This document shows positions 156 to 4,579 of a DNA stretch of 4,579 nucleotides, in pieces. How positions within the stretch are numbered: position 1 is the first letter of the stretch; every line of letters begins with the position of its first letter. The notes below the pieces were generated by a model. That model saw only the letters and a list, made by a program, of their open reading frames with translations, did no database searches and was not told the DNA's origin. Where the stretch lies: the IMG/VR virus record IMGVR_UViG_2698536450_000001. One strand, 5' to 3'. Made by a program: the position numbers and the translations under genes. Source of the DNA: a virus. Taxonomy: Duplodnaviria > Heunggongvirae > Uroviricota > Caudoviricetes.

Positions 156-509
156 TTATCGTCGCCGGTTAACAGCGGGTGGTTGCCCACGGTTGAGCCA
201 GAGATAACAGCTTCCCCCGTCATCCGGAGAAACACGATCCACCCAGAACATCTCGCCGTTAATGGTCAGCGTGTCACCACGCCGCACGGCACGCACCGTA
301 TCCGTCCGCACAAATAATGACGGGCTGCTTCCTTCAATACGGACCCCGCCACCGGCAAAACCCAGCGACTCCGGATCGTCAAAAACCCCCTGAACTTCGC
401 CGCCACGTTGTGCCCCCGAGGTGAACTGCGCACAGAGCCCCATCACTTCAACAATCGTTCTGTCCACCCCGGCAAGGGCAGCATCAAAGGAATTCTCAAA
501 ATCACGCAT
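156..509 (-). CDS. FII: Head-tail joining protein FII (lambda gpFII-like), 117 aa
   Basis: ORF track 156..509 minus. Translation MRDFENSFDAALAGVDRTIV...FWVDRVSPDDGGSCYLWLNRGQPPAVNRRR closely resembles my recollection of lambda gpFII (same 117 aa length, ...GDTLTI...FWVDRVSPDDGGSC.LWL.RG.PPAVNRRR). ATG at 509-507 lies 5 nt upstream of the FI stop (minus-strand ATGCGTGA), an 8-nt gene overlap typical of translational coupling. Confidence 0.9.
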   Translation of the reverse strand: MRDFENSFDAALAGVDRTIVEVMGLCAQFTSGAQRGGEVQGVFDDPESLGFAGGGVRIEGSSPSLFVRTDTVRAVRRGDTLTINGEMFWVDRVSPDDGGSCYLWLNRGQPPAVNRRR

Positions 510-870
510 AAACGGCCATTCCGCTCCTAACCATGTCTTTTGCCACTGAGGGGGGCATCAGAATTACTCTGCCAGCATCAACATGCTCAACAGGCTCACC
601 TGTTTCATCGTCAACACCGCACAGGTAAAAACACTTCAGAAGCCTGATACGTTCCAGAATACCAACGTCATCCTCACCGGTGTGCCTGCATGCCTGCTCA
701 TGAACGGTATCATCAACATCTGCGATTTCATTTTCCGAGGCGCAAACCTCCTCTTCCCACTCTGCCACACGCTGTGCGATATCCGCAGCACTCCCCGACA
801 TATCCGCCTCGCGCCCCAGCAGACCAGCCAGTTCACGAAGACGTTTCTGATTTTCTTCTTTTGTTGCCAT
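502..870 (-). CDS. FI: FI-like DNA-packaging / head assembly protein (lambda gpFI-like), about 122 aa
   Basis: Same frame as ORF 502..918, but I place the start at the internal ATG at 870-868 (MATKEENQKRLRELAGLLGRE...). This start is preceded by a GGGAG Shine-Dalgarno-like motif and lies downstream of the post-E hairpin, whereas the 918 start is a GTG inside that hairpin region. The N-terminus is lambda gpFI-like by recall, and the position between E and FII matches lambda. Confidence 0.75.
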   Translation of the reverse strand: MATKEENQKRLRELAGLLGREADMSGSAADIAQRVAEWEEEVCASENEIADVDDTVHEQACRHTGEDDVGILERIRLLKCFYLCGVDDETGEPVEHVDAGRVILMPPSVAKDMVRSGMAVYA

Positions 871-885
871 ATCCAGCTCCCTGTG

Positions 886-913
886 AAAAAAACACGGGGG
901 CATTTCGCCCCCG
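886..913 (-). terminator. Intrinsic terminator-like hairpin plus U-tract immediately downstream of the major capsid gene E
   Basis: Plus strand 895-913 is cgggggc-atttc-gcccccg: a 7-bp all-GC inverted repeat with a 5-nt loop. It is preceded on the plus strand by A7 (886-892), so on the minus strand the hairpin is followed by UGUUUUUUU. It sits 9 nt after the E stop codon (TAA at 924-922) and about 25 nt before the FI start. Confidence 0.5.
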
Positions 914-921
914 CTCACGGA

Positions 922-1978: not shown

Positions 1979-2000
1979 TCAGGCCACCATGGTGGCCTGA
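1979..2000. other. Perfect 22-bp palindrome (tcaggccaccatggtggcctga) in the D-E intergenic region; candidate RNA stem-loop or dyad-symmetric protein-binding site
   Basis: Read directly: 1979-2000 is its own reverse complement (9-bp arms around the central catg). It lies 8 nt after the D stop (TAA 2010-2008) and about 28 nt before the E start. On the minus strand it is not followed by a strong U-run. Confidence 0.45.
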
Positions 2001-2007
2001 TAACGTG

Positions 2008-2355
2008 TTACGGCAGAGCCGCGTGACTCAGGGCTGTGCCGGCAAAGGCATTTGCCTTTTTGTGTTCATCCACACTGTCAGGCCAGCGGATTGCCTCCGT
2101 CGCAAAGGTCCCCGACTTGTAATAGGTCAGCACCGTCTCTGTGCCTTCAAGCGGCAGTACCAGTATGCCAACCGCACTACCGGCTTTCTGTCCATCCCAG
2201 ACCACCAGTTTCCCGGTGGCTTCATCCAGCATCAGGGGCGTCAGAGCCGGTGTTGCAGAAGAAATCCCGCTGCTGCCTGTGGCGGTATGAGCCGGATCAT
2301 TACCAGCAAAAATACGTACTTCCGCACGCTGTTCAGTGATGGTTTTCGTCACCAT
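2008..2355 (-). CDS. D: Head decoration protein (lambda gpD-like), 115 aa
   Basis: ORF track 2008..2355 minus. The translation contains DPAHTAT...TPLMLD...KLV.WDG...A.VGIL...T...YKSGTF...FAGTA, which matches my recollection of lambda gpD. The size (115 aa versus 110 aa) and position between C and E are as in lambda. Confidence 0.9.
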   Translation of the reverse strand: MVTKTITEQRAEVRIFAGNDPAHTATGSSGISSATPALTPLMLDEATGKLVVWDGQKAGSAVGILVLPLEGTETVLTYYKSGTFATEAIRWPDSVDEHKKANAFAGTALSHAALP

Positions 2356-2391: not shown

Positions 2392-3207
2392 TCATGGCAT
2401 GGCCATGAGCATTTTCACGTCCGCATCACCGTCTGCTGACGTCTGTGACACGCCACCCCGCACCGCTGCCGGTGAATGATTCGCCATGAAATGTTCAAAC
2501 AGGGCGGTTGTGGATGCAGAGACCGGTTCGGCCTTACCTGATCCCGCAGCCAGCACAGCCCGGGCGTTCTCCACGGTCATTCCCGGGCAGGCAGCCAGTT
2601 TTTCAGCCTGCGCTTCTGCCCCTTTTGCCTCATCCAGGGCCATGATCTGATCACGAAGTGAGGGCCCGGCATCCGCCAGTGGTGCAGCCGCCAGGATCGG
2701 GCGGGCTTTTTCCACCGTCATCTCCGGCATCGCCGCCAGCGTTGCCGCCAGTTGTTCACGACCGTTCGCTTCTTCACACGCCATAATGCGATCGGCTTCA
2801 CTCTGCGCGGATGCCACCGGCTGCTGCGGTGCCGCCGCGGCCAGAATCGCCCGGGCCTGTTCAACGCTCATGCCCTGTTGCCCTGCCAGCATCGTGGCAA
2901 GCTGTTCACGTCCTTTCGCTTCCTGACACGTCAGGATCCCCATCACTCGCTGGTTCTCCTGCACTGCGGCTTCCGTTGCAGTTAATTGCGGCATAGTGCC
3001 TCCTCTGACATTACTGTTCAGCGCCGTGGCCATCACACTGATGGCATCCGACGCATTGATTAATTCATCCGCCAGCCCGGCCTCAATGCCGGACTGACCT
3101 TCAAAAACGGCGGCCTCTGTTCCCGTGACGGCATCAACAGACAGACCGGTAAACATCGCCACTTTTTCGGCAAACATCCGGCGCGCCGCATCAATGCGCT
3201 GCTGCAT
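2392..3207 (-). CDS. Nu3: Putative nested in-frame scaffolding protein (Nu3-like), translated from an internal start in the C frame; start position uncertain
   Basis: In lambda, Nu3 is the C-terminal about 200 codons of the C frame, translated from an internal start. The candidate internal ATGs here are at 3207-3205 (DMQQRIDAARR, with GAGG about 11 nt upstream), 3177-3175 and 3156-3154. The C-terminal part is Ala/Gln/Glu-rich and repetitive, as expected for a scaffold. Which start is used, if any, cannot be decided from sequence. Confidence 0.3.
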   Translation of the reverse strand: MQQRIDAARRMFAEKVAMFTGLSVDAVTGTEAAVFEGQSGIEAGLADELINASDAISVMATALNSNVRGGTMPQLTATEAAVQENQRVMGILTCQEAKGREQLATMLAGQQGMSVEQARAILAAAAPQQPVASAQSEADRIMACEEANGREQLAATLAAMPEMTVEKARPILAAAPLADAGPSLRDQIMALDEAKGAEAQAEKLAACPGMTVENARAVLAAGSGKAEPVSASTTALFEHFMANHSPAAVRGGVSQTSADGDADVKMLMAMP

Positions 3208-3897
3208 GTCCTGGCGAACCTCTGCCGGTAAGGCTTCAAACTGATTGCCATCCACCTTGTGCGTCCCTGAGTAAATCAGCGTGATATCCACACCGGCCTG
3301 CGCCAGATGACCGGCATAGCTGACATGGCTCATCATCACGCCAATGGAGCCGATACGGGATGTCTGGGTAACCAGCCGTCGGGAGCAGGCCGACGCCAGC
3401 AGCATGGCTGCAGAACAGGCCGTGTCATTGCACAGTGCCCAGACCGGCTTCTGCTGACGGAGGCGGTAAATCATGTCAGCGCAGTCAAACGCGCCGGCGG
3501 CCTGCCCGCCCGGACTGTCAATGTCCAGCAGTACGCCCCGCACCTGGCTATCCGCCATTGCCTGCTGAAGACAGGCGACAATACCGTCATAGCCTGTCAT
3601 TCCGGAAAATGGCCGCATACCCCCCAGCCGGTGCACCAGCGTGCCGGTCACCGGCAGTACAGCAATACCGTTCACCACCCTGTAAACACGGGCCGGTCGT
3701 TTACCTCCGGCCATGTACTCGTCCGTTTCAGCCAGCATTCCGGGAGCATCAAACTGTACCTGCTGTTGTGGTACCGAAAGACTTGCTGCCCCCATCTCGC
3801 GCCCGAGCGCGCAAAAGAAAACCCGCGCATAGGCGGGCTCCAGAAGCAGCGGTTCATTGAATGCTGCGGCAATAATGTGTGAAAGATTACGTCTCAC
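2392..3897 (-). CDS. C: Prohead protease / scaffold fusion protein (lambda gpC-like, S49/ClpP-fold peptidase domain with C-terminal Nu3-like scaffold domain), 501 aa, GTG start
   Basis: ORF track 2392..3897 minus. The N-terminus RRNLSHIIAAAFNEPLLLEPAYARVFFCAL matches the lambda gpC N-terminus by recall (RNLPHIASMAFNEPLMLEPAYARVFFCAL). Conserved protease-region blocks are present (NGIAVLPV.GTLV, GMTGY.GI, GAFDCAD.I, KPVWAL.ND..CSA..LLAS...RRLVTQT.R.GSIGVMM.H, ITLIYSG.HKVDGN). The start codon is GTG at 3897-3895 (plus-strand cac), preceded by AGGAGA at a 9-nt spacing; an in-frame stop lies upstream at 3936-3934. Confidence 0.9.
   Translation of the reverse strand: MRRNLSHIIAAAFNEPLLLEPAYARVFFCALGREMGAASLSVPQQQVQFDAPGMLAETDEYMAGGKRPARVYRVVNGIAVLPVTGTLVHRLGGMRPFSGMTGYDGIVACLQQAMADSQVRGVLLDIDSPGGQAAGAFDCADMIYRLRQQKPVWALCNDTACSAAMLLASACSRRLVTQTSRIGSIGVMMSHVSYAGHLAQAGVDITLIYSGTHKVDGNQFEALPAEVRQDMQQRIDAARRMFAEKVAMFTGLSVDAVTGTEAAVFEGQSGIEAGLADELINASDAISVMATALNSNVRGGTMPQLTATEAAVQENQRVMGILTCQEAKGREQLATMLAGQQGMSVEQARAILAAAAPQQPVASAQSEADRIMACEEANGREQLAATLAAMPEMTVEKARPILAAAPLADAGPSLRDQIMALDEAKGAEAQAEKLAACPGMTVENARAVLAAGSGKAEPVSASTTALFEHFMANHSPAAVRGGVSQTSADGDADVKMLMAMP
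2542..2952 (-). repeat. Three tandem in-frame copies of a ~35-50 aa motif (about 140-150 nt period) inside the C-terminal scaffold region of C/Nu3
   Basis: Protein residues about 316-452 contain ILTCQEAKGREQLATMLAGQQGMSVEQARAILAAAAP / IMACEEANGREQLAATLAAMPEMTVEKARPILAAAP / IMALDEAKGAEAQAEKLAACPGMTVENARAVLAAGSG. The repeat is visible at DNA level, for example plus strand around 2562-2590, 2700-2729 and 2851-2882 (cgggc.t.ttc.ac.gtcat..cc), and around 2610-2660, 2740-2800 and 2885-2945. Confidence 0.7.
3265..3852. repeat. Direct repeat copy 1 (inside intact C); 588 bp, about 99.5% identical to 3992..4579
   Basis: Base-by-base comparison of 3265-3852 with 3992-4579 at a constant offset of 727 bp. 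I find only 3 mismatches, in the motifs gacaatAccgtc/gacaatGccgtc, cgcatAcccccc/cgcatCcccccc and caccaccctg/caccacccgg, and no indels. Confidence 0.9.
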
Positions 3898-3966: not shown

Positions 3967-3991
3967 CCGGACGTGAGAGTCCGGCTTTTTA
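3967..3991 (+). terminator. Terminator-like hairpin plus T-tract oriented for plus-strand (antisense) transcription, inside the C-prime / C junction
   Basis: ccggac-gtgaga-gtccgg (6-bp stem, 6-nt loop) at 3967-3984, followed by cttttta (3985-3991) on the plus strand. On the minus strand it is preceded by an A-run rather than followed by a U-run, so it would act as an intrinsic terminator only on the plus strand. Confidence 0.3.
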
Positions 3992-4579
3992 CCCTGAGTA
4001 AATCAGCGTGATATCCACACCGGCCTGCGCCAGATGACCGGCATAGCTGACATGGCTCATCATCACGCCAATGGAGCCGATACGGGATGTCTGGGTAACC
4101 AGCCGTCGGGAGCAGGCCGACGCCAGCAGCATGGCTGCAGAACAGGCCGTGTCATTGCACAGTGCCCAGACCGGCTTCTGCTGACGGAGGCGGTAAATCA
4201 TGTCAGCGCAGTCAAACGCGCCGGCGGCCTGCCCGCCCGGACTGTCAATGTCCAGCAGTACGCCCCGCACCTGGCTATCCGCCATTGCCTGCTGAAGACA
4301 GGCGACAATGCCGTCATAGCCTGTCATTCCGGAAAATGGCCGCATCCCCCCCAGCCGGTGCACCAGCGTGCCGGTCACCGGCAGTACAGCAATACCGTTC
4401 ACCACCCGGTAAACACGGGCCGGTCGTTTACCTCCGGCCATGTACTCGTCCGTTTCAGCCAGCATTCCGGGAGCATCAAACTGTACCTGCTGTTGTGGTA
4501 CCGAAAGACTTGCTGCCCCCATCTCGCGCCCGAGCGCGCAAAAGAAAACCCGCGCATAGGCGGGCTCCAGAAGCAGCGG
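3989..4579 (-). pseudogene. Truncated duplicate of C (C-prime): encodes residues corresponding to about 16-211 of the protease domain, then stops at the duplication breakpoint; its N-terminus and start codon lie beyond the window end
   Basis: ORF track 3989..4522 minus has a translation identical to residues 35-211 of the intact C product, and the frame stays open to the window end. The reading frame ends ...DITLIYSG then TAA (3991-3989), whereas intact C continues THKVDGN.... The stop codon is formed by junction bases immediately outside the repeat. Confidence 0.7.
3992..4579. repeat. Direct repeat copy 2 (upstream partial copy of the C 5' region); extends to the window edge and probably beyond
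   Basis: Same alignment as for copy 1. Homology starts exactly at 3992 (ccctgagtaaatcagc...); the bases just before it (3988-3991 ttta versus 3261-3264 gcgt) differ. Confidence 0.9.

Follow-up and report, generated by a model that had tools for sequence, protein, structure and literature searches.

Immediately downstream of the major capsid gene E in a phage-21-type prophage, before the start of the DNA-packaging gene FI, the late transcript is predicted to form a strong GC hairpin that is followed by a U-tract. Predicted hairpins that are equivalent in position but not homologous in sequence are present at the E-FI junction in all lambda-type head modules that we sampled, usually accompanied by a second one upstream of E, and this comparison shows that the E-FI element is subject to purifying selection and is not a product of chance. 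We infer, with moderate confidence, that it is a genuine intrinsic-terminator-type RNA element, which Q-loaded polymerase would read through, leaving a hairpin that protects the 3' end of the capsid message, and which would stop polymerase that lacks Q.

The element was identified in a stretch of 4,579 nucleotides (hereafter, the window) from the IMG/VR virus record IMGVR_UViG_2698536450_000001. The window represents a lambdoid head module of the phage 21 type, and the prophage is phage-21-like. All genes in the window are on the minus strand, namely, the S49 protease/scaffold gene C (3897..2392, confirmed by Pfam), the head decoration gene, a shp/D homologue that adjoins E upstream (2355..2008; Pfam HDPD, 5.7e-25), the major capsid gene E, which corresponds to gene 7 of phage 21 (1950..922, 342 aa; Pfam Phage_cap_E, 2.5e-65) and ends with a TAA stop codon at 924-922, the DNA-packaging protein gene FI (870..502; Pfam Packaging_FI, 5.5e-16) and FII (509..156, also confirmed by Pfam). 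Phage 21 (Jouyvirus) is the closest named phage: its gp7 shares 95.5% identity with the capsid protein of the window, and the 241 nt of DNA around the hairpin are 87% identical to the corresponding phage 21 sequence. Closely related prophages were detected in about 1560 of the 5426 complete Escherichia coli genomes, including O104:H4, O111 and O55:H7 strains. Genomes of the O157:H7/EHEC type contain the E-FI junction in several copies, up to five per genome.

The start of FI, which bounds the region of interest, was assigned to the ATG at 870..868. It is preceded by a Shine-Dalgarno sequence, AGGGAG (882..877), and the equivalent site is annotated as the ribosome-binding site in the phage 21 records; the RefSeq annotation of a 98%-identical prophage also supports the gene. 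A longer frame, ORF 502..918, starting from the GTG at 918 or from an ATG in the hairpin loop, was rejected given the homologues, the Pfam match and the Shine-Dalgarno sequence. What appears to be a mis-call of the same kind occurs in the phi80 record (NC_021190, 7196 onward; positions 1736-1760 of our locus L084), where FI is begun at a GTG within the 5' arm of the hairpin, 9 nt past the E stop codon; the N15-like ATG located 36 nt further on, behind a GGAG, is the likelier start.

Several other features of the window were noted. Positions 3265-3852 are repeated exactly, in direct tandem orientation, at 3992-4579; the period is 727 nt, the junction is at 3991/3992 and the duplication extends to the window end. 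As a result, the full protease gene C is preceded by a truncated second copy of its N-terminal part (ORF 4522..3989, 177 aa, ending in LIYSG-stop). The 98%-identical prophage in the complete genome FDAARGOS_536 lacks the 727-nt duplication, and among the listed matches in complete E. coli genomes, the best 12 contain the two pieces flanking the junction about 729 bp apart and never contiguous. The duplication is either a rare real event or an assembly artefact. A few bases from this junction, at the border between the portal and protease genes, there is a terminator-like site on the plus (antisense) strand (3967-3984), CCGGACGTGAGAGTCCGG followed by CTTTTTACCC. Further along gene C, its C-terminal third (approximately 2500-2900, minus strand) encodes a protein segment that is repeated three times in tandem, with a unit of about 38 aa (…EAKGREQLATMLAGQQGMSVEQARAILAAAAP…, …EANGREQLAATLAAMPEMTVEKARPILAAAP… and …EAKGAEAQAEKLAACPGMTVENARAVLAAGSG…), the counterparts of the repeats that the phage 21 record labels 'Tri box' and lists as being of unknown function.

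The core of the E-FI hairpin (895..913, minus strand) consists of seven G-C pairs (913-907 with 901-895) that enclose a GAAAU loop (906-902), and an outer G914.U894 wobble can lengthen the structure to 894-914. Directly 3' of the stem lies the U-rich tail UGUUUUUUU (886..894, minus strand; U894, G893, U892-U886), with seven to eight U per 9 nt and an nT value of 3.44. The minus strand across the junction reads GUGAAA UAA UCCGUGA G CGGGGGC GAAAU GCCCCCG U G UUUUUUU CAC AGGGAG CUGGAU AUG. Within the 51-nt intergenic region, the hairpin sits 8 nt past the E stop codon, and the Shine-Dalgarno sequence of FI is located 11 nt past the hairpin, outside its pairing. The initial annotation had placed a 7-bp all-GC stem with a 5-nt loop and a U-tract at 886-913, between the E stop codon and the FI ribosome-binding site; the minus-strand sequence agrees in every respect except the distance between the stop codon and the 7-bp stem, which had been given as 9 nt and is 8 nt.

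The isolated hairpin has a predicted free energy of -16.8 kcal/mol (-14.8 for the 7-bp core), and the pair probabilities of the stem remain between 0.95 and 1.00 in sequence contexts of 90 to 800 nt. In a consensus scan of the window for terminators, the site at 886-913 ranked at the top. With strict motif criteria (7 Watson-Crick pairs, at least 6 of them GC, and at least 6 U in 9 nt), it is the only match on either strand, and only 12 of the 2000 dinucleotide-preserving shuffles of the whole window (0.6%) contained any such match. Taken as a whole, the 76-nt segment has an unexceptional minimum free energy (z = -1.77), and the rarity lies in the combination of a hairpin with a U-tract; the motif-specific shuffle test was used for this reason. 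Over its entire length, the window contains 14 matches to the terminator pattern compared to 4.5 expected from shuffles. A scan of the whole window against Rfam yielded no match at 886-914 and, elsewhere, only three sub-threshold matches with E-values of at least 0.33; no sigma-70 promoter-like sites were detected in the window, compared to 2.4 expected, which is a weak negative result. A bidirectional terminator was considered and rejected because the plus-strand tail, UCACGGAUU, has only 3 U in 9 nt. The canonical intrinsic-terminator architecture on the coding strand that had been proposed for this site is thus upheld by the pattern scan, folding energy, shuffles, tail score (see below) and pair probabilities alike: a stable GC stem-loop is immediately followed by a U-tract, in the sense orientation, downstream of a coding region. 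The element also has the structural features of an mRNA-stabilising stem-loop, that is, a stable hairpin at the 3' boundary of the cistron that is required in the greater amount, with the structure conserved rather than the sequence.

Within the phage-21-like group, the hairpin hardly varies. We tabulated 81 phage-21-type loci (80 from IMG/VR and phage 21 itself); the stem is unchanged in 73, and the remaining eight represent six variant types, all of which retain the ability to fold. L018 shows the matched deletion of a G and a C, C-to-U changes that yield G.U pairs occur in L059 and L068, and single-base length changes in the G5/C5 runs, possibly sequencing errors, occur in L052, L058 and L060. 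The loci L089 and L090 (from E. coli and Shigella) combine a compensatory change from G-C to A-U with a new loop base and retain a run of five U although the rest of the spacer has diverged. Phage 21 has an identical hairpin with the tail GUCUUUUUU, which most of the relatives also carry in place of the tail found in the window. Among approximately 2300 prophage copies in E. coli, the hairpin is better conserved than the flanking coding sequence: 1512 of 1555 complete E. coli records match the 42-nt segment that contains the hairpin with at least 95% identity, compared to 627 of 1565 for the surrounding 241 nt. The 42-nt query found 2301 places in 1552 genomes, and the 241-nt query spanning the E-FI junction found 2313 places in 1562 genomes; these nearly equal counts indicate that the hairpin is not a dispersed repeat, and a dispersed palindrome of the REP/BIME type was rejected accordingly, the sequence being confined to E-FI junctions.

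Covariation within groups is weak because the stems scarcely vary inside a group. In the alignment of 21-like sequences, 100% of the cells are paired, with one compensatory pair (G-C to A-U) and two G.U pairs, a level reached by 105 of 500 shuffles. In the alignment of lambda/N15-like sequences, 97.6% of the cells are paired and three contain a U-A to C-G replacement; the covariation score is reached by only 1 of 500 shuffles and comes from a single varying pair. Between groups, the hairpins cannot be aligned, and the support for the element is positional.

The positional conservation among distant relatives is the strongest evidence for the element that comparison provides. The E-FI stem of lambda, AUGGCCC-UUCG-GGGCCAU, is unrelated to that of the window, and other distinct stems were found in N15 and phi80 (GUGGCCC-N4-GGGCCAC), Gifsy-1 (AAAGGCCUG-AUU-CAGGCCUUU), Providencia (CGGCGGG-GAAA-CCCGCCG) and an Aeromonas phage (12-16 bp), with further stems in each of Serratia, Trabulsiella (11 bp), Buttiauxella, Erwinia and Cedecea. 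Strong GC hairpins are present at this place even in four E-family phages with about 30% capsid protein identity, namely, Proteus phage pPM_01, Vibrio phage K290, Pseudomonas phage ZRG1 and a chi-like Salmonella phage. Altogether, at least 10 lineages have non-homologous stems at this one position, and lineages that have lost the U-tract still keep the stem. The spacing is constrained as well: in most of the 50 distinct hairpin-bearing E-FI regions, the hairpin ends 17-24 nt before the FI start (full range 11-31). In many lineages, the E stop codon is only 2-9 nt from the stem. To quantify the enrichment, perfect-stem hairpins with a predicted free energy of -11 or lower were counted in 23 diverse loci (85 kb). 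The E-FI intergenic regions contain 18 of these in 1.4 kb and the D-E intergenic regions contain 20 in 1.8 kb, compared to 59 in the remaining ~82 kb, so that such hairpins are about 18-fold denser in the two junctions than elsewhere.

Two further observations were made in the course of this survey. A contig of Kosakonia sp. S29 (FONB01000025.1, 14052-21504; L130 and L147) encodes two E-family capsid homologues within about 3.7 kb, 60% and 42% identical to the window protein; there is no hairpin after the more distant one, and the next gene begins 9 nt past its stop codon. In addition, capsid genes about 60% identical to the window protein, which is the level of lambda E, were found on short, mostly low-coverage contigs assigned to unrelated organisms, such as Chromatium, Neobacillus, Kitasatospora, Paenibacillus, Bradyrhizobium, Prevotella, Akkermansia and Corynebacterium (L096-L111, L129, L133-L141 and L144). 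In the two that were checked, L096 and L102, the E-FI intergenic region is identical to that of lambda, and most likely these contigs represent lambda DNA contamination or spike-in.

In the window, E is bracketed by two hairpins. The one in the D-E intergenic region, UCAGGCCAC-CAUG-GUGGCCUGA (1979..2000, minus strand), has 9 bp, a predicted free energy of -15.8 and pair probabilities of at least 0.92; its U-tract is poor, and with a score of -27.4 it is not terminator-grade. At the DNA level, this hairpin is a perfect 22-nt palindrome, TCAGGCCACCATGGTGGCCTGA. The counterpart in phage 21 (L001, approximately 607-628), TCAGGCCACCGCGGTGGCCTGA, differs by an A-to-G and a T-to-C change in the center (CCATGG vs CCGCGG), in bases that would be located in the RNA loop, and is still a perfect palindrome. 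Unlike this 21-type D-E hairpin with its poor tail, the lambda/N15-type modules carry a canonical terminator, consisting of an A-tract, GCCGC-N4-GCGGC and U6-7, directly upstream of E (L002, 1100-1135, which corresponds to lambda 6099-6134; also L083, L084, L115-L128 and L143). It is kept, with variable loops, in Escherichia, Kluyvera, Citrobacter, Enterobacter, Klebsiella, Erwinia and Aeromonadaceae. The presence of a canonical terminator ahead of the gene for the most needed late product implies that late transcription must ignore such signals. A more ambitious possibility, which we regard as doubtful, is that E is a hairpin-bracketed cassette that would be insulated from non-antiterminated transcription in lysogens, thereby avoiding leaky capsid production detectable by capsid-sensing abortive-infection systems, and that the two hairpins would also cap both ends of a long-lived processed E or D-E message during lytic growth, within an antiterminated transcript of more than 20 kb that is uniform in other respects.

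The E-FI hairpins differ widely in the quality of the tail. We graded them with an approximate score of the d'Aubenton-Carafa type, the values of which are only indicative because the formula was calibrated on older energy parameters and modern energies were used. On this scale, the window allele scores +20.8, lambda about +10, phage 21 +5.9, N15 -12.5, and Trabulsiella, Buttiauxella, Cedecea and the distant phages between -16 and -44. Terminator-grade scores were obtained for about half of the distinct E-FI hairpins, and about half of the lineages have a poor U-tract or none. The stem, by contrast, is universal, which points to the hairpin, and not the variable U-tract, as the element common to the set. 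The U-runs themselves are well conserved in the E-FI hairpin of the 21-like group and in the D-E hairpin of the lambda type, which argues that termination proper or some other U-dependent function is selected there, and not the stem alone.

In the scenario that we favor, the late operon would be transcribed during lytic growth by Q-loaded RNA polymerase, which would pass the site because the Q nozzle blocks hairpin formation in the RNA exit channel. Q-loaded polymerase has been described as deficient in pausing and termination, with the Q nozzle precluding formation of terminator hairpins (10.1101/651190, PMC9388147); the read-through of the terminators upstream of E agrees with the mechanism described there. 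The E-FI hairpin would fold afterwards, in the completed transcript, and once the message is cleaved endonucleolytically in the single-stranded U-rich spacer, the hairpin would block 3'-to-5' exonucleases, so that the capsid (D/E) segment is proposed to outlive the segment comprising FI and the downstream genes. In contrast, polymerase without Q, be it in the prophage state, after spurious initiation or before Q accumulates, would terminate at the hairpin, since no feature of an efficient intrinsic terminator is missing from the window allele. Besides the weak covariation within groups and the well-conserved U-runs, two considerations count against this scheme. A stop codon located 2-9 nt from the stem implies that terminating ribosomes would repeatedly melt the hairpin, and differences in the yield of lambda late proteins reportedly stem mainly from translation initiation and not from mRNA amounts (Sampson and coworkers, 1988). 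A full-text literature search, which did not reach key lambda papers, found no experimental study of the window hairpin or its equivalents in lambda, 21 and N15, and a paper on Salmonella prophage transcriptomes contains nothing on the E-FI junction (PMC7067206).

Several other explanations have to be weighed against this scenario. The selected role could be insulation only, that is, stopping Q-less polymerase that arises from leaky read-through of tR', spurious initiation in the late region or the prophage state, so that the capsid and the downstream head and tail genes are silent until Q appears and any effect on message stability is incidental. We consider this explanation rather unlikely, albeit plausible for the window itself, where the allele is a textbook intrinsic terminator. 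The U-runs of the 21-like group are kept even next to a diverged spacer, as in L089, and the lambda/N15-type modules retain GCCGC-N4-GCGGC-U6-7 before E across many genera with varied loops; furthermore, stopping spurious, non-antiterminated transcription is named as a possible role in the discussion of phage L by the Casjens laboratory (PMC8022706), and terminators are documented as insulators in the mobile element Tn916 (PMC11658703). However, about half of the lineages, including Trabulsiella, Buttiauxella, Cedecea, N15, the chi-like phage and others, have no usable U-tract at E-FI, and the D-E hairpin of the window is not terminator-grade, so termination cannot be the shared function of the whole set; nor does the window contain a sigma-70 promoter-like site that would need insulation. 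Partial termination during lytic growth, whereby some late transcripts would end at the hairpin and the transcription of FI, FII and the tail genes would be lowered relative to the capsid, appears improbable. The strong hairpin with its U-tract, located after the most abundant structural gene, resembles T7 T-phi, which follows gene 10 and downstream of which RNA coverage falls (PMC6938266), and partial termination is listed among the possibilities in the phage L paper (PMC8022706). Such attenuation is difficult to reconcile with the termination deficiency of Q-loaded polymerase and the exclusion of hairpins by the Q nozzle (10.1101/651190, PMC9388147). Moreover, the equal or better terminators upstream of E in lambda/N15-type modules would cut capsid synthesis, which is the opposite of what the phage needs. 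In lambda, the major tail protein is required in amounts of the same order as E, which also speaks against attenuation.

A role in translation is similarly hard to credit. Here, the hairpin would prevent long-range pairing or re-initiation and thereby keep the FI initiation region isolated from the heavy translation of E, and the U-rich spacer would be a landing pad for the ribosome (S1); the narrowly constrained distance to the FI start, mostly 17-24 nt, the location of the Shine-Dalgarno sequence, which is never within the stem, and the U-richness of the spacer in many lineages all fit this idea, but UUCG or GNRA-like loops on very stable GC stems are found more typically in terminators and exonuclease barriers than in translational insulators, and there are hairpins without a U-rich spacer (L093 and L131). 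Finally, the palindrome might act in the DNA, as a recombination site or module boundary between head-gene alleles or as a protein-binding site, or might have no role at all. The FI alleles are mosaic, the homology of several phages to the window ends inside FI, and the neighboring D-E element is a perfect 22-nt palindrome that is still palindromic in phage 21. Nevertheless, we deem this explanation very improbable: the E-FI element is polar, with the U-run on the mRNA side only and 3 U in 9 nt of the plus-strand tail, the G.U-tolerant variation in L059 and L068 fits pairing in RNA and not in DNA, and chance is excluded by the shuffles and the 18-fold positional enrichment. Among the three roles that the initial annotation had offered, the mRNA-stabilising 3' hairpin suits the comparative pattern best, whereas partial termination that sets the capsid dosage is the least likely; stopping Q-less polymerase in the prophage state is plausible for the window allele, given its very good U-tract.

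As a sequence feature, the window hairpin is ordinary: any terminator finder predicts it, and its positional counterpart in N15 is already annotated. The interest lies in the setting. Textbooks present the lambdoid late operon as a single promoter that yields a single antiterminated transcript, with translation determining the protein ratios, and yet hairpins and canonical terminators are conserved on both sides of the capsid gene in lambda-type head modules of many genera. If the proposed role in message stability or lysogen silencing is correct, it would add a post-transcriptional or insulating layer to the classic regulatory model and would matter for the engineering of lambda- and Stx-type phages and display vectors, in which the D-E and E-FI junctions are common insertion points.

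The closest precedent is N15 (NC_001901), where both stem-loops flanking the capsid gene 8 (5980-6004 and 7053-7073) are annotated as 'putative rho-indep. transcription terminator'. N15 shares with the window the order C, D, hairpin, E, hairpin, FI and the 7-bp GC stems on the coding strand between the capsid stop codon and the FI start. In contrast, its E-FI stem, GUGGCCC-AUUC-GGGCCAC, is unrelated, and the tail, CUUUCU, is poor compared to the excellent tail of the window; the strong terminator is upstream of E in N15 and downstream of E in the window. In the phage 21 (M81255 and OL657228) and lambda (NC_001416) records, the E-FI hairpin is unannotated in all three. The lambda hairpin occupies the equivalent position, separated from the E stop codon by 2 nt, with the tail UGUUUCUCU, but it has a non-homologous stem, a UUCG tetraloop and an interrupted U-tract.

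Beyond the E-type head modules, the procapsid gene module of the P22-like phage L ends with a predicted rho-independent terminator that is internal to the late operon, and the roles of such terminators are described as not known (PMC8022706). Like that of the window, it is a predicted terminator in an antiterminated, single-promoter lambdoid late operon, but it belongs to a head-gene family with a P22-type, not an E-type, coat, and its sequence is unrelated. T7 T-phi, the single terminator of T7, similarly comes right after the capsid gene 10, and lower downstream RNA has been measured (PMC6938266); it differs in being experimentally proven and in acting on T7 RNA polymerase, which has no Q-type antitermination, whereas the window element would meet Q-loaded host polymerase. 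Differential decay caused by secondary structure within E. coli operons has been described by Dar and Sorek (2018), as cited in PMC6938266. With intercistronic stabilising stem-loops, the window element shares a stable stem-loop at the 3' end of the higher-yield cistron, followed by single-stranded A/U-rich RNA. The REP in malEFG is an example of such a stem-loop, and unlike REP/BIME elements, the window hairpin is restricted to E-FI junctions. The window hairpin is thus an addition to an already annotated class of terminator-like hairpins beside phage capsid genes.
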